Assembly (NCBI GenBank): GCA_045630405.1 | Contig: JAZQTC010000022.1 | Span: forward strand, 53,673 to 117,672 | Length of the DNA: 64,000 bases | DNA from: Acutalibacteraceae bacterium | GTDB taxonomy: Bacteria; Bacillota; Clostridia; Oscillospirales; Acutalibacteraceae | Direction: 5' to 3' | Shown here: positions 2,902 through 25,200 of the stretch, piece by piece | Numbering within the stretch: position 1 is the first letter of the stretch | Layout: the number at the start of each line of letters is the position of its first letter | The notes under the pieces: generated by a model | Told to the model about the DNA's origin: nothing | The model's input: only the letters and a program-made list of their open reading frames with translations | The model's database searches: none | Translations under genes and position numbers: made by a program

Positions 2902-2936
2902 AAGCAGAAGACGGTGCCTCGGCACCGTCTTCTTGC
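2902..2936 (-). terminator. Intrinsic terminator after TIR gene
   Basis: AGAAGACGGTGCC-GGCACCGTCTTCT stem immediately after the stop; TTTT follows on the minus strand. Confidence 0.75.
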
Positions 2937-2940
2937 ATTT

Positions 2941-5613
2941 TTATGTTGTTTTTTTGGTTTGATCCTGAAACAAATTAGCCAGAAAGTGACAAATAAGTTC
3001 TGCGTTTTCCGCACATATAATCTCAGGCGCGGTGCTGTCTTTGTACGTTATGCTCAACTCATTGTCTCTCTTTTTCACCGAAGCAATTCTGTCGTACATA
3101 ACGCAATGGTGATCCTCGGATGTGATGCAATACATTCCTTTTTCCGTAATCCAGCAGCCTGTTTCTCCCTTGCCGTCAGAAGTATCGGAATAAGCAATCA
3201 TTTCGTCAAGCACCCAATCGGGCTCAACAACTGTTCTGAAAACGTTCTTTTTGGAAAGAGGAATATTCGATTTGAATCGGAACATTTTAACGTTGCCGGG
3301 AATGTACATATCTTTATACACCTGCATATTGGCTTTTTTCAGAGCAACTGCAACCTTTGACAAATTCGGATCAACGTTTTCAGCACTATCCCATTTGCTT
3401 CTTTCTTCACACACAATCGCAACAAACGCCATCACGTTAAATTCAGGGGACGTCTCTATGCCTGTAAGCATACCGTCGATTGAAACAACGCTGATATGGC
3501 TGTTCTTTGTCTCTCTGATTCCCCGAATGTTGTCAAACATAAAAGCGCCCGACTCATCTTTATCGCTGTCTTCCCAATAAATCGCATTCTTTGTGAACAA
3601 GTAGCTCTGAGAAGATTTGCCTTTAAAAGATCCCACAATGTTTTTGGGATCTATCACGTAATCTTCAACTATGATTTTCGGCACCGTATCTTTATTGAAT
3701 GAATCGTCATCCGTTGTTGATATTTTTTCATCGACTTCATTGTATCGGGCAATGGCGTTTTCTACGTAAGGAATATCAGGCAAAGGTATTCTCTTCTGTT
3801 CCGCCTGCTCATCAAGACCGTATTCATACGACAGAGGAGGGCGTTTGCACATAAGCCTTTTCTTCCTGAGTATGTAAATGAACATTGCGTAAATCATATC
3901 CGAATACGAAGAATAATTTTTTGTTTCTGTTTTGCCGCCTTCAAGCTTGATTGTTATTTCACCGCTATCCGTGTTTCGGGTCACAGAACGAATTTCATCC
4001 AGATCTATGGGCACACCGCCTGCAAAGGTATCGTAGAGCTTTCCTCTCGCTATAAGAAGACCCTCTTTGCCCGTTTTATTCTTGGTTGTATCAAGAAGAG
4101 CATCAACTCTCCACTGATAAAACGGGTCTTTAATTTTTGTTTTTGTGAAATGCTCCAAAGCATTCAGCCTTTGTTTTTCGGTGAGGTTAGCCGCAAAATG
4201 AAAAACGTCATCTCTCTTGAAGTGTTTACCTGAGTGTTTCTTGTTTGCATGGCAGATTGCCTTTTTAATCAGGCACTCGGGTCTGTCTGACAAATCCTTT
4301 TCAGGCTTTTTGAAACCTCTGTGCTTCAGAAGAATTTCGGCAAATCTGTAAAAATCAAACAAACCATTGTTTTTGATTCCCAACACTTCTCCGTAATACA
4401 TATAGAACACCGTGCATACGCCTGATTTCCTGACGTCAATCACGTCACCCAAATTTACGTAACACTCATCTCCCATATATCGCCACAACAAACTTTCTCC
4501 GCAGAAAAGAGCCCCCTCTTTTCCCGAAGACAGAACCGTCATATCCATCAGGCCGACAAAATTATCCGTTTTTTCCGTTCCACACGCAATATACTTCAGA
4601 GCATTTTCAACTTGTTTGGGTTTCAACTGTTTCTCATAGCAGATACGGTGTTTTGCCGTTGTGTTATATTCATCTATGACTTTGCGGATATCAAATTCGC
4701 CGAGAAGCCTTCTTCTGGCTTTTTCTTTTTCTTCGGCTTCTTTGATTTCCTCTGATTTTGACGCAATCCTTTCATCAAAATACTTTGATGTTTGCGGACC
4801 CGTATATTTTTTCTGCGATTTATCCGCACTCTTTTTTACGGACGTTCCTTCCGTGGTTTTTGACGCTGCGGATGTTTGTTGAGTTGCATCGGCAACTGAT
4901 GATTTGTTCTGTGTTTTAACAGTATTCCCACTGTTTTTTGCGTATGTATCAGCTGATAACTCTGCGGGCTTTTTCTCGCTTTCTTCTATGTTGTTGCCGT
5001 CCTTGACCGTCAGCGGTTCGACTTGCTGTTTTCTGATGTCATTACCGCTGTTTACGCCTTTTGCATCAACCGACTCACCCGATTTTTTGAATTCGCCTAT
5101 AAGTTTGTTGAAGTTATCTTCGTTTGACTCCTTATCCGAAACTTCTTTTGTCTCAGACTTGTTTTCGGCAATGTCAGCCACCTGCGGTTTCTTCTCCGAC
5201 TTGCATGGTTGCAAAATCCTGAGTCCTGCCAAGGTGTCGCAAAGCGACTCATTGTCTTTGAAATTTGACAACCTGATATTCTGCAAATCGCCCAGCAGGA
5301 ATCTTATGTCTATTGAAGGTTCAAAATCCTCAACGTACACAACCAATATATCTTTCTGGCACTCAACCGAAAAATTTATTTCCTTGCAGCAATACTGGGA
5401 TTCCTGAGCGTTTCTGCTGAGCATCACAACAACCACCTGGCTGTTTTTGATTTTTTCAGCAAGATATCGCGTCCACTTTGATCCCACTTCTATTCCGCTG
5501 TCATACCAAACGTTGAAGTTCCTTTTCTGCAGCGCCTCGATTATGGGGTAAACAACATCGGAATCCTTATGAGAATAACTGACAAAGATAAAATTTTCTC
5601 CTGTATCTTGCAT
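2941..5613 (-). CDS. TIR-domain protein (N-terminal TIR, low-complexity linker, four repeated PH-like domains)
   Basis: FVSYSHKD...WYD..IEVG..W...SQYCCKEI TIR motifs at aa 8-95; K/E/S/T-rich aa ~140-300; repeats with D.T...GKEG.L motif. Confidence 0.8.
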   Translation of the reverse strand: MQDTGENFIFVSYSHKDSDVVYPIIEALQKRNFNVWYDSGIEVGSKWTRYLAEKIKNSQVVVVMLSRNAQESQYCCKEINFSVECQKDILVVYVEDFEPSIDIRFLLGDLQNIRLSNFKDNESLCDTLAGLRILQPCKSEKKPQVADIAENKSETKEVSDKESNEDNFNKLIGEFKKSGESVDAKGVNSGNDIRKQQVEPLTVKDGNNIEESEKKPAELSADTYAKNSGNTVKTQNKSSVADATQQTSAASKTTEGTSVKKSADKSQKKYTGPQTSKYFDERIASKSEEIKEAEEKEKARRRLLGEFDIRKVIDEYNTTAKHRICYEKQLKPKQVENALKYIACGTEKTDNFVGLMDMTVLSSGKEGALFCGESLLWRYMGDECYVNLGDVIDVRKSGVCTVFYMYYGEVLGIKNNGLFDFYRFAEILLKHRGFKKPEKDLSDRPECLIKKAICHANKKHSGKHFKRDDVFHFAANLTEKQRLNALEHFTKTKIKDPFYQWRVDALLDTTKNKTGKEGLLIARGKLYDTFAGGVPIDLDEIRSVTRNTDSGEITIKLEGGKTETKNYSSYSDMIYAMFIYILRKKRLMCKRPPLSYEYGLDEQAEQKRIPLPDIPYVENAIARYNEVDEKISTTDDDSFNKDTVPKIIVEDYVIDPKNIVGSFKGKSSQSYLFTKNAIYWEDSDKDESGAFMFDNIRGIRETKNSHISVVSIDGMLTGIETSPEFNVMAFVAIVCEERSKWDSAENVDPNLSKVAVALKKANMQVYKDMYIPGNVKMFRFKSNIPLSKKNVFRTVVEPDWVLDEMIAYSDTSDGKGETGCWITEKGMYCITSEDHHCVMYDRIASVKKRDNELSITYKDSTAPEIICAENAELICHFLANLFQDQTKKTT

Positions 5614-5636
5614 TTCCCCGCTCTCCTATTCTGAAT

Positions 5637-6638
5637 TTATCTGAAATCAACGTACTGTGCCGTGTAGTAGAGCATAATCAGAAAGCCGATTATCATAGGC
5701 ACAGTCTTCACGAAAGTTATCATCTTCGTTTTCTCGCTCATCACGGTAAACGAGGGCACCAGCCTGCGCTTTCCGCGGAGAATCACAAACCGCACGCTGC
5801 CTGCAATTGAAACAACCGTCAGCACCGCCATAGATGCGTAATAGACAATATTCAGCGTTTTTTCGTCTGCAATATCCGCAATCATAAACTCTGTCATAAC
5901 CGCGTAAAAATTGTTGCAGAAATGAATCAGAATGCCTGTCCACACGCTGTTTGTGATGCAAACTGCATAGCCGATTCCGATGCCTGCAATCAGGGCAAAA
6001 GGAGCCTGAACGAGGTTTCCGTGAAGCACGGCAAAAACAATTGCCGATGCAAGAATTGCGAATTTGTCGCCGTATCTTCTCAGAGGCTGGAGCACAGCAC
6101 ATCTGATTGCAAATTCTTCAACCAACGCAGGCACAGCCGCAACCGCAAGCACGTACAGCACTCTGCCTGCAAAATCCTCGGGCACCGAATATTCGGGCGA
6201 AGTGAGCGAAACTCCTGCAAAATCCGCAAGGTTAACAAATACACTTGTGACGTAATTTCCTGCGAGGCAAACAAAAAATCCGAGCGCCGTTGCGCTGACC
6301 ATCAGCTTTGTGCTGACAGGCTTGTCAAATCGGAAAACGTCTGTGCCCGTCTTTTTTTCAAGAAGAAATCCTGCGATACCAAAGGGAATAACCAAGCTCA
6401 GAACAGAGTAAAATATTGTTACAACGCTCTGCACCGACGGGTCTGTTTCATAAAGATTTGCCAGCGGTGTGAGGAAAATCAGCACGGAAACAATATTCTG
6501 CATCAGCACGTAGCCGATAACGCTCAATCCTGCCGCCTTGCTCAACAATTTTATATTCTTTTTCTCGTTTTCTTCGCGGATATAACTGTCGTATCCGCCG
6601 TTTTCGTAATTATACAAATTTATCACCGTATTTTGCAT
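5637..6638 (-). CDS. CPBP (Abi/CAAX) family intramembrane metalloprotease
   Basis: Multi-TM; EEFAIR, FAVLH, HFCNN motifs. Confidence 0.85.
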   Translation of the reverse strand: MQNTVINLYNYENGGYDSYIREENEKKNIKLLSKAAGLSVIGYVLMQNIVSVLIFLTPLANLYETDPSVQSVVTIFYSVLSLVIPFGIAGFLLEKKTGTDVFRFDKPVSTKLMVSATALGFFVCLAGNYVTSVFVNLADFAGVSLTSPEYSVPEDFAGRVLYVLAVAAVPALVEEFAIRCAVLQPLRRYGDKFAILASAIVFAVLHGNLVQAPFALIAGIGIGYAVCITNSVWTGILIHFCNNFYAVMTEFMIADIADEKTLNIVYYASMAVLTVVSIAGSVRFVILRGKRRLVPSFTVMSEKTKMITFVKTVPMIIGFLIMLYYTAQYVDFR

Positions 6639-19839: not shown

Positions 19840-22257
19840 ATGAAAGACCCCAAGGAAATTCTCGCTCAGTTGACCCTTGAAGAAAAAGCTGCTATCTGCG
19901 ACGGTGCAGATTTCTGGCATCTCAAGGGACTGGAAAAATTCGGCATTCCCTCAATTATGGTTTGCGACGGCCCTCACGGACTCCGCAAGAAAGACTATTC
20001 AAAAACAGGTGACAGCCTTTCAAACAGCGTGCCTGCCATCAGCTATCCCACAGCCGCAACAACCGCAGCTTCATGGGATTCAGAGCTCCTCTTCGAAATG
20101 GGTGTTGCTCTGGGCAAAAAGTGCCTCAAGGAAGAAGTCGGCGTGCTTCTCGGACCCGGCATCAACATGAAGCGTTCACCCCTTTGCGGCAGAAACTTTG
20201 AGTATTTTTCAGAAGACCCCATCCTTGCAGGTGAACTTGCAGCAGGCTTCATCAACGGTGTTCAGTCAATGGGCGTCGGCACTTCACTCAAACATTTCTG
20301 TGCCAACAGCCAGGAAACCCGCAGAATGACCTGCGATTCAGTTGTTGACGAAAGAGCGCTCCGTGAAATCTATCTCACCGCATTTGAAATTGCCGTCAAG
20401 AAGGCTCAGCCCTGGACAGTAATGAACTCATACAACAAAATCAACGGTTTCCACGGTTCGGAAAACAAGCACACACAGATTGAAATCCTCCGTGACGAAT
20501 GGGGCTTCGACGGTGTTGTAGTCAGCGACTGGGGCGCAGTTAACGACAGAGTTCTCGGTTTTAAGAACGGTAACGACCTTGAAATGCCCTCATCATCAGG
20601 TTCAGGCACAAAGAAAATCGTTGAAGCTGTTCAGAACGGCACACTCGACGAAGCCGTTCTCGACGAAAGAGCACTCAATATGCTCAAGCTTATGAAGAAA
20701 GCAGTTGACGGTGCAAAGGCAAACTATGCATACAACGACGCAGACGATCAGCCTCTTGCAAGAAGAATTGCCGCAAACTCAATGGTTCTCCTTAAAAACA
20801 ACGGCATCCTTCCCCTCAAGAAGGGCGGCAAGATTGCAGTTATCGGCGAGCTTGCAAGAAAGCCCAGATATCAGGGTGCAGGCTCATCACATATCAACCC
20901 CACACAGCTTGACAACGCTCTCGACGAACTCAGGAAGGCAGGCTTTGACGTTGAATTCGCTCAGGGCTACGAACTTTCAAACAAGAAAGCAAAGAAGAAC
21001 GCTGCTCTTGCTGCAGCCGCTGCAGAAGTTGCAAAGAAATGCGAAACCGCAGTTCTCTTCATCGGTCTTACCGACGAATACGAAGCAGAGGGCTTTGACA
21101 GAAGCCATATGAATCTTCCTGCAGCACACGATGCTCTTGTTGAAGAAATCCTTAAGATAAACAAGAACGTTGTTATCGTTCTTGCAGGCGGTTCACCCGT
21201 TGAAATGCCCTGGAACGACGGTGTTGCAGCTATCCTCAACTCATACCTCGGCGGTCAGGCAGGTGCAGGCGCAGTTGCAGATATCCTTTCAGGCGCGGTT
21301 AACCCCAGCGGTAAGCTCCCCGAAACTTATCCCATGACTTACGCAGACACTCCTGCAGTCAACAACTTCCCCGGCAACCCTGCATCGGTTGAATACCGTG
21401 AAAGCGTATATATCGGCTACAGATATTACGAAAAGGCTGCAAAGGCTGTACGCTATCCCTTCGGCTTCGGTCTTTCATACACAACATTTGAATATTCAGA
21501 CATCAAACTTGACAAGTCAGCAATGGATGAGAACGATACTCTCACCGTTACCTGCAAAATCAAGAACACCGGCAACGTTTCAGGCTGCGAAGTTGCACAG
21601 CTTTACGTTGCAGATAAAGAAAGCACAATCTACAGACCCGTCAAGGAGCTTAAGGGCTTCAAGAAGGTATGGCTTAACCCCGGTGAGGAAAAGGAAGTTT
21701 CATTTGAACTTTCAAAGAGAGCATTCGCTTTCTATAACGTAAACATCAACGACTGGTGCGTCGAAAGCGGTGAATTCGATATTCTCGTAGGCGCATCAAG
21801 TGCAGATATCAGACTCAGCGCAACAGTCAACGTAACTGCAGCTGCAGCAGATATCCCCGACTACTCAAAGGTTGCTCCCCTCTACTACACAGGCAACGTT
21901 CAGAACGTTCCCGAGGAGCAGTTCGTTGCAGTTCTCGGCAGAGAGCTTCCCGAAACAGACTACGATCCCAACAGAAAGCTTGGCATCTGCGACACCTTTG
22001 AAAGCTGCCGCCACGCAAAGAACGGCAAGAAATTCTACAAGCTTCTTTCAACCCTTATTCCTGCAGGCTTTGCTCAGGCAATCGCTCTCCAGACTCCTTT
22101 CCGCGATTTCATCAGTATGAGCGGCGGCGTTATGAGCGAAGATATGGCAAACGGTCTTGTAATGTGGATCAGCGGCGAAAAAGGCGGTATCCGCAAGATT
22201 CTTAAGGGTATCCCCGGCGCAATCAAGGGCATTGGTCCCCTCCTTAAGAATATCTAA
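19840..22257 (+). CDS. Glycoside hydrolase family 3 beta-glucosidase with Fn3-like domain (cytoplasmic)
   Basis: DGPHGLR, RNFEYFSEDP, KHFCAN, VVSDWG nucleophile motif, ELKGFKK. Confidence 0.95.
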   Translation: MKDPKEILAQLTLEEKAAICDGADFWHLKGLEKFGIPSIMVCDGPHGLRKKDYSKTGDSLSNSVPAISYPTAATTAASWDSELLFEMGVALGKKCLKEEVGVLLGPGINMKRSPLCGRNFEYFSEDPILAGELAAGFINGVQSMGVGTSLKHFCANSQETRRMTCDSVVDERALREIYLTAFEIAVKKAQPWTVMNSYNKINGFHGSENKHTQIEILRDEWGFDGVVVSDWGAVNDRVLGFKNGNDLEMPSSSGSGTKKIVEAVQNGTLDEAVLDERALNMLKLMKKAVDGAKANYAYNDADDQPLARRIAANSMVLLKNNGILPLKKGGKIAVIGELARKPRYQGAGSSHINPTQLDNALDELRKAGFDVEFAQGYELSNKKAKKNAALAAAAAEVAKKCETAVLFIGLTDEYEAEGFDRSHMNLPAAHDALVEEILKINKNVVIVLAGGSPVEMPWNDGVAAILNSYLGGQAGAGAVADILSGAVNPSGKLPETYPMTYADTPAVNNFPGNPASVEYRESVYIGYRYYEKAAKAVRYPFGFGLSYTTFEYSDIKLDKSAMDENDTLTVTCKIKNTGNVSGCEVAQLYVADKESTIYRPVKELKGFKKVWLNPGEEKEVSFELSKRAFAFYNVNINDWCVESGEFDILVGASSADIRLSATVNVTAAAADIPDYSKVAPLYYTGNVQNVPEEQFVAVLGRELPETDYDPNRKLGICDTFESCRHAKNGKKFYKLLSTLIPAGFAQAIALQTPFRDFISMSGGVMSEDMANGLVMWISGEKGGIRKILKGIPGAIKGIGPLLKNI

Positions 22258-22268
22258 GGGTGAATACA

Positions 22269-25200
22269 ATGGCAAAAAAGAAGTTATCAGTAAAAATAAT
22301 CAGCGTTGTGCTTGCACTTGCTATGCTCATTTCCTGCGTTCCTATGATGGCAAGTGCGGACACTTCAACCATCCGCTTCGGCGTTATTTCCGACATTCAT
22401 TACCTCGCTCCCTCGCTGAAAGGTGAGGGCGCGGAATGGTATGACAAGGTCAACAAGCAGCACAAGGAATACAACGACCTTGACGGTCTTGTCGACAACG
22501 CTCTTGACGGTGTTCTCCGCAACGCAGTTGAAAACGGAGAAACCTATCTGCTCATCCCCGGTGATATGACCAAAGACGGCGAGCTTGAGAGCCACAAGGT
22601 TCTTGCCGCAAAGCTTGAACAGTTTGAGGCTGAAACAGGCATTCCCGTTTTTGTTATCCCCGGCAACCACGATATCAACAACAGCAAGGCAACCGATTAT
22701 TCGGGCAACACCCAGACTCCTGCCGCAACAACTTCTCCCGAGCAGTTCAGAGAAATCTATAAGAACCTGGGATTTGATATGGCAGACAGCTTCTTCGTTC
22801 CCGAAGAGGGCAAAAAAGGCGGTATGCTTTCATACGCCTGCACTCTCGGCGGTTACAGACTCATCGCTATCGACAGCTGTATGTACAGCGAGGATAACGG
22901 TGCAGAAGGCAACGAGCATATGACCGACGGTCAGCTTGCAGACGGTCTGCTTGAATGGATTGTTGACGAGTGCGAAAAGGCAGAGGAAAACGGACTTACC
23001 GTTATCGGTATGCAGCACCACAACCTTGTTCCCCACACAGACATCGAGGAAGCCACTTTCTGGCCCTTCGTTGTAAGAGATTGGATGAGAATTGCAGAAA
23101 CCTATGCAGACGCAGGTATGCACTACGTTTTCACAGGCCATCTTCATTCAAACGACACGGTTTCTCACGTCAACGACAACGGTGAAACCGTATATGACAT
23201 TCTCACTCCCACCCTTACAGGCTATCCCAACTATTACAAAATAATTGATTTCACATCCGACGGCGAAACAACCTCAATGGATATGCAGACGCTTGACATC
23301 GACAAGTATCAGCCCGTTGTCGGTGATGACGGTACTGTCTACGAAGTACCTTTCAAGTATACGTATTCATACGGTCAGACCTTCGGTGACGGCGGTGTAA
23401 AGAATCTTATTCAGGGTCTTGTTTATCCCTTTATCTCCGGCCTTTTTGAAGAAATTCAGGCAGCCGGCGGCATCGGTGAATACCTCAAGACAAAGAATCT
23501 TGACCTTGAAAAGATTATTGTTGACGCTCTCGGCACCAACGGTCTTGCAATCGGTGATGTTGAAATCCTCACCGTCAGCTCAAACGTTATGGGCTTTGCA
23601 AACGACCTTTTCAGTCAGGTTGACAACGTTTATATCAACGATATCGACGGCACAATCGCAAAGGTTGACGCAATCATCGATAAGCTCATCAATTTTGAGG
23701 TAAGTACCCTTGAAGCAACCATTCCCAACGAATACGTGGGCTATGAGCTTACAGGCAAGGGCTGCACTCTTGCAGACTACGCAACCTCACTTCTCATTCT
23801 CCACTACCTTGGTGATGAAGATATTTCCGGTTATCCCTATATGACCGATGCTCTTGACCGTTTTGAAAGCGGCGAGCTTGCAGAAAAGTTCTTTGCACTT
23901 CTTCTTGAGGTTGTTGTTGACGACCTTGTGCAGGGTGAAATCCTGGCAAATCTCAAATTCAACCCCGGTGAGCTTTTCCCCGACGGTACTGCGCTCAGCA
24001 TCTTCGGTGATATCATTCAGGGCGGTCTTGAAGCACTTCTCGGCGGTGACAACAGTTTCATCAACCTTGTCAGCTCCGTGCTTGCAATTCCCCTTGTTCC
24101 CGAGGAATACAGCTCCGTCAACTCAATCATCGACACTCTTCTCGGCGAATATATCACTCAGAGCCAGTATGAAGCCTGGGGCTACACCATCAGCTGGATG
24201 GTAAATGCCTTCCTTGAGGATGACGGCATTGACGATAACAACTGCACAATCACCTACAGCGGCCCCGTTGAGGTCGAGGCAACTCAGGATAACTACCGTC
24301 TCCCCTCACACATTGCGGTTTCTCTCGGTGAAGATTCATCAAGTGAAATGAGCATCACCTGGCTCACAAAGTACAGCGTTGAGGGCAGCGACATCGAGAT
24401 TATTCCTTACAGCGAAAATCCCGAGTTCACGGGCAATCCCACAAAGGGATTCGCTGCAAAGTGCGAGCCTGTTGAAAAAATTTATCCGGGTGCAGATATC
24501 GGTCTGCTCCTCACTCTTCTCCCCTTTGAGAGAATTTACAACAAGCACACCATCAATCTTTCAGGTCTTGAAAGCGGCACAAAATACAGCTACCGCATCG
24601 GTGATGCGGAAAAGGGCTGGTGGAGCGAAGCAGGCACAATCACCACCGCAGGCGGTGATGACGAAGCATTCACCTTCTTCTATATGGCCGACCCTCAGGC
24701 TCAGCGCAAAGACCAGTACGAAAGATTCGGCGAAGTTGTTGAAACTGCTCAGGCTCTTTATCCCGATGCACGTTTCATTGTTTCCGCAGGCGATCAGGTT
24801 GACGCAGGTCAGAACGTTAAGCATTGGAATTACTATCTCAATTCAACCACAGCGCTCCTTGATCTTCCTCTTATGCCCACAACAGGCAACCATGAAAAAG
24901 AGGGTGCGGTAATCACAGAAAACTTTGCACTTCCCAACGTTCCCGAGCAGGACCTTGAAACAGGCGTTTATTATTCATACGATTACAACGGTGTTCATTT
25001 CACCGTTCTCAACACCAACGATGACGAGGACGATAAGCTCAGCGATGCACAGATTGACTGGATGATTGATGATATCAGTTCAAGCGACGCAAAGTGGAAA
25101 ATCGTTGTTCTTCACAAAGCACCTTATTCAAACGGCTCTCACTACGATGACAGCGACGTTGAGGGCTTCAGAAAGCAGCTCGGTACTCTTCTTCCCTATC

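Follow-up and report, generated by a model that had tools for sequence, protein, structure and literature searches.

The window analysed here, a stretch of 64,000 nucleotides from an Acutalibacteraceae bacterium, contains a gene on its reverse strand for a protein in which a TIR domain is followed by a K/E/S-rich linker and four divergent repeats, R1 to R4, each of ~140 amino acids (aa) (Table 1). The gene is a single open frame of 890 codons with no internal stop, and it stands in the gene order rlmI-like (+), PI-PLC-X-like (+), TIR gene (-), CPBP/Rce1-like protease (-) and glgP (+). The first-pass annotation, made from the letters of the window, had proposed a TIR domain, a linker and four repeats within one open reading frame (ORF), and this layout was borne out by the frame itself, by Pfam and by an independent hidden Markov model (HMM). 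Neither a signal peptide nor a transmembrane segment was found in the 890-aa protein. Since its highest 19-residue Kyte-Doolittle mean is only 1.15, the protein is predicted to be soluble and cytoplasmic.

Domain architecture of the TIR-repeat protein

The N-terminal domain is a member of the TIR fold according to Pfam, with a TIR_2 match of 75 bits against a cut-off of 28. ThsB_TIR (30.9 bits, cut-off 21.2, E 3.7e-7) and TIR (29.6 bits, cut-off 21.3) were also matched above their cut-offs. The best sequence matches in the PDB were plant and bacterial TIR NADases (7xoz, AbTIR 7uwg/8g83, RPP1 and RPS4), and Brucella TIR proteins appeared weakly among the PDB matches. In the alignment to 7xoz, an ADP-ribosyl cyclase/cyclic ADP-ribose (cADPR) hydrolase, residue E78 of the segment SQYCCKEI is paired with the Glu of the plant 'WCLDEL' motif, and the E78 column is invariant in two alignments of the TIR clade (A2 and A5). 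Within the plant TIR class, catalysis depends on the Glu of WCLDEL. The earlier assignment of E78 to the catalytic position of TIR NADases therefore agrees with the alignment, and E78 is the putative catalytic glutamate of this protein. Elsewhere, the same TIR clade is fused to MORN, Sel1, FHA, kinase, LRR, TPR and WD40 modules, and in other fusions to a transmembrane segment with an extracellular domain. Such varied partners appear to reflect a typical sensor-swapping pattern. The same genome also encodes a second TIR protein (contig C61 of G000, ~21440-22626 on the minus strand; positions 682-1869 of locus L002), a 396-aa frame with an N-terminal TIR domain, one transmembrane helix and an extracytoplasmic domain resembling those of P0008/P0010, which is a topology of Toll-like-receptor style in a bacterium.

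The linker (157 residues) is of low complexity. K, E, S, T, Q, N, D, A, G and P make up 83% of its residues, its grand average of hydropathy is -1.34, and its length and sequence vary among relatives without conservation. It is presumably disordered, in line with the ~160-aa disordered linker first described. The GC content of the gene is 41.5% (45% at third codon positions) versus 46-47% in the genes for RlmI, the PI-PLC-like protein, CPBP and glgP, and 3.9% of same-length segments within the 64 kb reach a value as low. The lower GC content noted at first sight is thus real, but the contrast with glgP is smaller than was stated, because glgP lies at 46-47% and not at 50-55%.

For the detection of the repeats, a repeat-unit HMM was built from 27 units of other proteins (P0013-P0027, collected by exhaustive phmmer), with this protein and its close relatives left out. 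It matched the 890-aa protein four times, with envelopes at residues 305-438 (R1, E 7e-23), 444-589 (R2, E 7e-23), 650-742 (R3, a partial match and the weakest, E 3.6e-5) and 759-890 (R4, E 1.5e-12). The boundaries drawn by eye (308-433, 446-585, 612-738 and 750-884) lie near these envelopes. A D-x-T-x(3-4)-G-K-x-G motif is kept in R1 (FVGLMDMTVLSSGKEGALF, spanning strand 1, the loop and strand 2 of the model described below), in R2 (ALLDTTKNKTGKEGLLI) and in R4 (AYSDTSDGKGETGCWIT). In the corresponding sequence of R3, SFKGKSSQSYLFT, the D/T of the motif is gone and most of D-x-T...G-K-x-G is lost. R3 is acidic (pI 4.4), and R1 and R2 have pI values of 8.8 and 9.6. The profile built for the two-repeat module aligns colinearly with R3-R4 (E 2.8e-21). 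In hhalign comparisons the best pairs were R1-R2 (97.9% probability), R4-R2 (93.5%) and R3-R1 (E 1.9e-4). The pairing of R1 with R3 and of R2 with R4 fits an origin of the four-repeat form by duplication of an R1R2 module, which would have given rise to R3R4. Self-BLAST of the 890-aa protein revealed no internal repeats, because the copies are too divergent for it, and the two-repeat-module profile found only chance-level matches among all PDB sequences. The precomputed Pfam lists of the relatives show TIR families only.

We examined the fold of the repeats on AlphaFold2 models, of which that of R1-R2, computed from an alignment of 15 rows, had a mean pLDDT of 87.1 and a pTM of 0.80, and that of R3-R4 a mean pLDDT of 78.8 and a pTM of 0.71. 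DSSP assigned to each of the four repeats 2-3 helices, seven strands and a long C-terminal helix, and the repeats were compared with each other by this order of secondary structure and by hhalign. The conserved motif occupies the last part of strand 1 and the loop leading from it to strand 2, which is the ligand-binding position in classical PH domains. Foldseek searches against the PDB returned almost only PH-superfold entries, including the tandem PH proteins Rtt106, Pob3, Spt16 and SSRP1 (best E 1.8e-4 for R3-R4 and 3e-3 for R1-R2) and the single PH domains of ARAP3, Avo1, GRK2, ASAP1, ISP3 and DAPP1 (probability 0.9-0.99, target-normalised TM-score 0.43-0.50). In BFVD, a few small phage 'bacterial PH domain' proteins were matched. 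The predicted models contain the seven-stranded antiparallel beta-sandwich and the C-terminal alpha-helix of the PH superfold. At the level of sequence, no single repeat has a relevant Pfam match at E<=10, and none falls in a PH or bPH family. These models indicate that the repeats share one PH-like fold without a described sequence family, and the beta-rich PH-like fold suspected from the sequence is supported by the AlphaFold and Foldseek comparison (one predicted fold, PH matches, per-domain probability 0.97-0.99).

The repeats also match an anti-phage protein. The PADLOC model of BnzA, a component of the Bunzi system, matches the 890-aa protein in three stretches (E 9.7e-14), all within positions 7-116 of its 544, and single repeats are matched as well (R1, E 2.8e-9, positions 9-91; R2, E 1.2e-3). 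Near the start of experimentally verified BnzA proteins stands the motif AAIYDTTLLGSGKEGIVFTGEKLFY (Millman et al. 2022 supplement). The verified BnzA of L. animalis begins '...KKKVVNAAQKIANGINPAFIAAIYDTTLLGSGKEGIVFTGEKLFY' and that of E. coli begins '...KKLNNVAKSM...VIALLDSSLLGNGKEGIAFTGERMVY', both with the same motif as the repeats (Millman et al. 2022 supplement). These matches indicate that the repeats and the N-terminal domain of BnzA (BnzA-N) are homologous; Pfam has no model for this domain.

The BnzA-N-like domain is promiscuous and occurs outside TIR proteins too (loci L029, L030, L031, L095 and L093 and protein P0023). The proteins of L029 and L030, from the same class, resemble the BnzA of Bunzi, with a PH-like domain, TerB-like helices and a glycine-rich transmembrane region in 559-594 aa. 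Those of L031 and L095, the latter from the same genus (G012), combine a PH-like domain with a glycine-zipper-like membrane region and a coiled coil in 379-396 aa. In L093/L096 (contig C216 of G033, same genus) a giant ORF of at least 1077 aa in the locus, and a 1468-aa frame in the genome, carries an N-terminal zinc ribbon, three BnzA-N-like PH-like domains and Sel1-like repeats. In P0023 the domain is fused to Fib_succ_major.

Table 1 Positions of the gene, its domains and the neighbouring features within the window
Feature	Position	Strand	Basis
TIR-linker-4xPH-like gene (P0001)	2941..5613	-	890-aa ORF
TIR domain, aa 1-140 (Pfam TIR_2 match aa 9-119)	5194..5613	-	Pfam E 8.4e-21; PDB sequence matches
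E78 codon, putative catalytic glutamate	5380..5382	-	alignment to 7xoz; invariant column in A2, A5
Linker, low-complexity K/E/S/T-rich, aa 141-297	4723..5193	-	composition
R1, aa 298-440, BnzA-N-like PH-like domain	4294..4722	-	HMM, PADLOC BnzA, AlphaFold2
R2, aa 441-596	3826..4293	-	HMM, PADLOC BnzA, hhalign with R1, AlphaFold2
R3, aa 597-745, most degenerate copy	3379..3825	-	partial HMM match, hhalign, AlphaFold2
R4, aa 746-890	2944..3378	-	HMM, hhalign with R2, AlphaFold2
AGGAGAG Shine-Dalgarno-like motif, 7 nt before ATG, within the 23-bp spacer	5621..5627	-	sequence reading
GC-rich hairpin of 12 bp immediately past the stop codon, flanked by T/A runs (likely terminator)	2906..2933	.	sequence
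CPBP/Rce1-like intramembrane protease gene, upstream, co-oriented	5637..6638	-	Pfam Rce1-like 1e-15
PI-PLC X-domain-like protein, 296 aa	1742..2632	+	Pfam PI-PLC-X 2.8e-5, just above cut-off

Distribution and genomic setting

A phmmer search with the C-terminal 595 residues against 1.84 billion representative proteins gave 17 matches at E<=1e-3, mostly with the layout TIR, linker and two repeats, one with three repeats and one with a C-terminal TIR domain. Word-indexed homologue searches recover few relatives. In GTDB, with one genome per species, the TIR clade comprises 51 loci, nearly all in metagenome-assembled genomes (MAGs) of ruminant or animal-gut Clostridia (Acutalibacteraceae, Oscillospiraceae and Ruminococcus), and 10 of the 51 encode TIR with one or two repeats. 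Of 398 other genomes from the class, 5 carry the repeat domain. The architecture of TIR plus repeats is rare and confined to animal-gut Clostridia MAGs. Four repeats occur only in the protein described here, in a 97%-identical fragment (P0011) and in the metagenomic protein P0006 (~43% identical). The relative P0007 is truncated, and its C-terminal sequence no longer follows that of P0006. No protein of the family is named in any source among the databases searched for relatives.

Restriction of the family to animal-gut MAGs could suggest a host-directed TIR protein like Tcp/Btp, in which the repeats would bind host phosphoinositides and the TIR domain would hinder animal Toll-like receptor (TLR) signalling or deplete host NAD+. 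A lipid-binding module beside a TIR domain recalls TIRAP and Brucella BtpA, and the PDB matches to Brucella TIR proteins, weak as they are, point the same way. However, the protein has no signal peptide or secretion motif and no secretion system nearby, its hosts are commensal Clostridia (Acutalibacteraceae and relatives), and an anti-phage protein of E. coli and Lactobacillus contains the same PH-like domain, so that we regard a host-directed role as very unlikely.

Within the genus, the TIR-repeat gene stands at this locus in 3 of 132 species genomes, namely this genome, G490 (locus L036) and G482 (locus L037), and the same locus is occupied by a TIR-repeat gene in the metagenomic contig L087. 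The comparison of sister genomes proposed in the first-pass annotation thus shows the gene to be accessory and not core. In G034 the site is empty, and the CPBP and PI-PLC genes are convergent and 224 bp apart. An origin from a mobile element found no support: phage and plasmid collections gave no match, viral contigs only a weak one to TIR, and the surroundings contain no integrase.

In all four syntenic genomes (this one, L036, L037 and L087) the CPBP gene precedes the TIR gene at a spacing of 18-23 bp, which is 23 bp here from the CPBP stop to the TIR gene start. No separate promoter stands out for the TIR gene, and co-transcription with CPBP is therefore likely. Most congeners carry an HtrA-histidine kinase-response regulator cluster beside CPBP, which in this genome lies ~10 kb away with ordinary genes between. 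CPBP as a dedicated partner of the TIR protein was rejected, since CPBP belongs to the core genes of the genus (found in 36 of the 37 sampled congeners, with or without the TIR gene) and is absent at the other TIR-repeat loci; CPBP is probably a promoter donor.

The constant position of CPBP bears on the possibility that the protein is a signal-generating TIR of Thoeris type, making a cADPR isomer or related messenger to which an effector elsewhere, or CPBP itself as a membrane protease, would respond. The best TIR matches in PADLOC and NCBIfam are models of ThsB and Thoeris-III ThcB4, and ~30 effector types, many of them membrane proteins, have been linked to TIR signalling (Yirmiya et al. 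2025 preprint). These TIR matches are, however, far under the family cut-offs. Moreover, CPBP is a core gene that does not accompany the other TIR-repeat loci, no conserved neighbour takes its place there, the 93%-complete genome has no SIR2_2 (ThsA-type) gene, and CAAX/CPBP proteins are unmentioned in the text of the Thoeris survey. A Thoeris-type signalling role is therefore rather unlikely.

On the other side lies the PI-PLC-like gene, conserved in 31 of 37 congeners. A functional link between a PI-PLC-like protein and a lipid-binding domain was considered and rejected as coincidence, because the gene is core, lies on other contigs in most congeners and adjoins CPBP without a TIR gene in G034. 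The ten TIR-repeat loci have no conserved neighbour and lie among housekeeping genes such as those for GlmS, cysteine synthase, a PanE-like protein and GH3, which fits a single-gene system. In 2 of the 10, a second TIR-Sel1 gene follows the TIR-repeat gene. These are two Eubacteriales MAGs (L044 8052-10268 and L047 8051-10267), in which the gene for a 738-aa TIR-Sel1 protein (Pfam TIR_2 2.5e-6, Sel1 1.8e-8) comes directly after a TIR plus one-repeat gene and forms a tandem pair of TIR sensors. In an Acutalibacteraceae MAG (L042 5565-6953), a gene for a protein with a transmembrane segment and a RyR domain (Pfam RyR 6.3e-8) adjoins a TIR plus two-repeat gene upstream in the same orientation.

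Allelic divergence and selection

Between this genome and L036/L037, protein identity is 94-95% for RlmI and 93% for GlgP, 76% for CPBP and PI-PLC, and 39-43% for the TIR protein, which has two repeats in L036 and L037 versus four here. Between L036 and L087, CPBP is 97% identical with a synonymous divergence (dS) of 0.13, the TIR domain is 89% identical with a dS of 0.49, the linker has a dS of 1.37, and R1R2 is 53% identical with a dS of 1.80; repeat number is two versus four despite the 97% identical CPBP. Among the syntenic alleles, flanking-gene identity ranges over 75-95%, and the synonymous divergence of the TIR-repeat gene is 4-14 times that of the adjacent gene. Simple fast evolution in place was rejected in favour of allele exchange, since dS itself, and not protein divergence alone, is 4-14 times that of the adjacent gene. 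This excess goes beyond what positive selection alone would give and indicates that divergent alleles have probably been exchanged at a fixed chromosomal site. CPBP and the PI-PLC-like gene, at ~76% aa identity to L036/L037, have a dS of 0.85-1.27, and RlmI and GlgP, the next genes out, at 93-95% aa identity, have a dS of 0.66-0.74. The extra divergence of CPBP and the PI-PLC-like gene is as expected if recombination tracts reach into the neighbours.

The ratio of nonsynonymous to synonymous divergence (dN/dS) is ~0.2-0.25, and 0.08-0.39 over all regions compared, including R3R4. These values indicate that the gene is under purifying selection and so maintained. They also bear on whether the gene is what is left of a horizontal acquisition, now decaying or without function, as the GC content below that of the flanks, the loss of the loop motif in R3 and the truncation of the relative P0007 might suggest. 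Against decay stand the intact 890-codon frame, the dN/dS in every region compared, the conserved catalytic Glu and motif residues, and a good ribosome-binding site and terminator, and we consider a remnant extremely unlikely.

Could the gene instead serve a housekeeping or stress role outside immunity, as a sensor of membrane or envelope state that tunes NAD+ metabolism or signalling, comparable to the proposed TerB-linked 'membrane surveillance'? The housekeeping neighbourhood, the probable co-transcription with a core membrane protease and the synteny in three sister species are consistent with such a role, as is the occurrence of BnzA-N on non-immune-looking modules (Fib_succ_major, zinc ribbons and Sel1). 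Absence of the gene from 129 of 132 congeners, however, argues against a general physiological need, and the extreme allele divergence, excess dS and variation in repeat number form the pattern of conflict genes. In addition, both TIR and BnzA-N have, to our knowledge, functional precedents in anti-phage immunity only. A non-immune role is thus unlikely, and the accessory, hyper-variable and modular nature of the gene suggests an immune one.

Proposed function and comparison with known systems

We propose, with about even confidence, that the protein acts in defence as a standalone single-gene TIR NADase, with its PH-like array serving to sense a cue and to bring the TIR domains together. The N-terminal TIR domain would provide the enzymatic output, most likely NAD+ cleavage, and the flexible 157-residue linker would tie it to four tandem PH-like domains of BnzA-N type. 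The array may bind a multivalent cue, such as an anionic membrane surface, an intermediate of the envelope that infection has altered, or a repetitive structure of the phage. Binding would concentrate or order the protein and lead to self-association of the TIR domains, and depletion of NAD+ would then stop growth, as in abortive infection. Self-association is an activator of TIR NADases. The ligand, the oligomerisation trigger, the NADase activity and the anti-phage function are thus all putative parts of the model. Workers in the field take standalone TIR proteins of bacteria to be likely effectors that deplete NAD+ (Yirmiya et al. 2025 preprint).

Several observations weigh against this proposal. 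No defence island surrounds the gene, whose neighbours (rlmI-like, PI-PLC-like, CPBP and glgP) are housekeeping genes without an integrase or transposase, and phages, plasmids and viral contigs yielded no homologue beyond the one weak TIR match. PADLOC and NCBIfam call no system for the protein, and its TIR matches to the ThsB and spbK models are weak and far below their cut-offs. The conserved Glu fits NAD+-depleting and signal-producing TIR domains alike, the anti-phage role of the family is putative, and binding of a lipid or other ligand by the PH-like domain is a candidate function. As to the fold, Foldseek gave E-values no better than 1.8e-4, which is modest, and differences in how the domains are arranged keep the TM-scores of whole models low. 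The R3-R4 model is not independent, since its alignment included sequences of R1-R2 type.

A broader hypothesis, which we put forward tentatively and with somewhat less than even confidence, is that BnzA-N is a portable infection sensor of membrane or envelope state, or of a repetitive phage structure, that is placed on at least two outputs, TerB with transmembrane helices in the case of Bunzi and a TIR NADase in the protein described here. On this view, an undescribed family of single-gene abortive-infection systems would be made up of TIR-(PH-like)n proteins, in which recognition is tuned by repeat number (1, 2, 3 or 4) and by allele exchange at a fixed site. Bunzi is a validated anti-phage system for which we know of no described trigger or mechanism. 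If the hypothesis is true, the ligand of the repeats described here would also explain phage sensing by Bunzi. The multiplication of BnzA-N on a TIR domain, an output with easily assayed chemistry, offers a direct handle for experiments on what the sensor domain recognises. The architecture would also add a PH-like, possibly membrane-reading, class of sensor to bacterial TIR immunity. In uncultured rumen and gut Clostridia, whose immune systems are poorly surveyed, the locus also serves as a small natural case of alleles being exchanged and repeat number changing at a fixed chromosomal site.

The first-pass annotation did not recognise the architecture as a described system, and after the PADLOC run and a comparison with NCBIfam, Pfam and the searchable literature it is still undescribed in all four. 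To the ThsB proteins of Thoeris it is linked by its matches to the TIR_2 and ThsB_TIR families and to several PADLOC ThsB models. Unlike Thoeris, it has no adjacent ThsA (SIR2/SLOG), Macro or other effector gene, its neighbours being CPBP and the PI-PLC-like gene, and its NCBIfam ThcB4 score is 26.7 bits against a cut-off of 220. ThsB proteins, in turn, are without PH-like repeat arrays.

In organization, the protein resembles the standalone or sensor-fused TIR NADase effectors, such as SpbK of B. subtilis ICEBs1, AbTir, the TIR-SAVED and TIR-STING proteins of CBASS, and TIR-Avs. Like them, it is a single polypeptide without a signalling partner, in which a TIR domain with the catalytic Glu is joined to a non-catalytic module for sensing or assembly. 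Its TIR part weakly matches the PADLOC models of spbK (E 0.0019) and SAVED_TIR (E 1.2e-6), and AbTIR is among its PDB matches. Its sensor, by contrast, is a tandem PH-like array, and Pfam and PADLOC detect no SAVED, STING, NACHT/STAND or SpbK N-terminal domain in the 890-aa protein. CBASS and Pycsar, defined by SAVED, STING or cNMP-binding domains with a cyclase, do not include it either, as the SAVED_TIR match covers TIR residues 9-78 only and no cyclase gene is a neighbour.

TIRAP/MAL and Brucella BtpA/TcpB are TIR proteins joined to a lipid-binding region, and they resemble the protein in the concept of a membrane- or lipid-targeting element on a TIR domain. They differ in using a short basic phosphoinositide-binding motif and in acting in animal TLR signalling, and homology to them is confined to TIR. 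In fold, the repeats are like the PH superfold, including tandem Rtt106, the FACT proteins Spt16/Pob3/SSRP1 and bPH, in having a seven-stranded sandwich and a C-terminal helix in tandem. They are unlike PH and bPH domains in carrying an extra N-terminal extension of 2-3 helices with a conserved K-Q-x-x-N-A motif, and unlike the double PH domains of histone chaperones in their inter-domain geometry (rmsd 13-17 A).

Bunzi provides a relative of the sensor. The N-terminal domain of ~110-135 aa in BnzA, verified in Ligilactobacillus animalis DSM 20602 and E. coli (Millman et al. 2022), is homologous to each repeat by the matches described above, and both have the motif K-x-x-x-N-A ... D-T-T-x-x-x-S-G-K-E-G-x-x-F-T. 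BnzA has one copy of the domain, followed by TerB and two transmembrane helices, and works with BnzB. The protein described here has four copies and a TIR domain in place of TerB and the helices, without a TerB match in Pfam or a transmembrane segment, and no BnzB-like protein is encoded beside it, the adjacent proteins having no PADLOC match. Because the defining features of Thoeris and of Bunzi were tested and are absent from the locus, apart from the BnzA N-terminal domain itself, the protein is best classed as a member of neither. The comparison points to a sensor-fused TIR effector, predicted to carry a PH-like sensor that it has in common with Bunzi.

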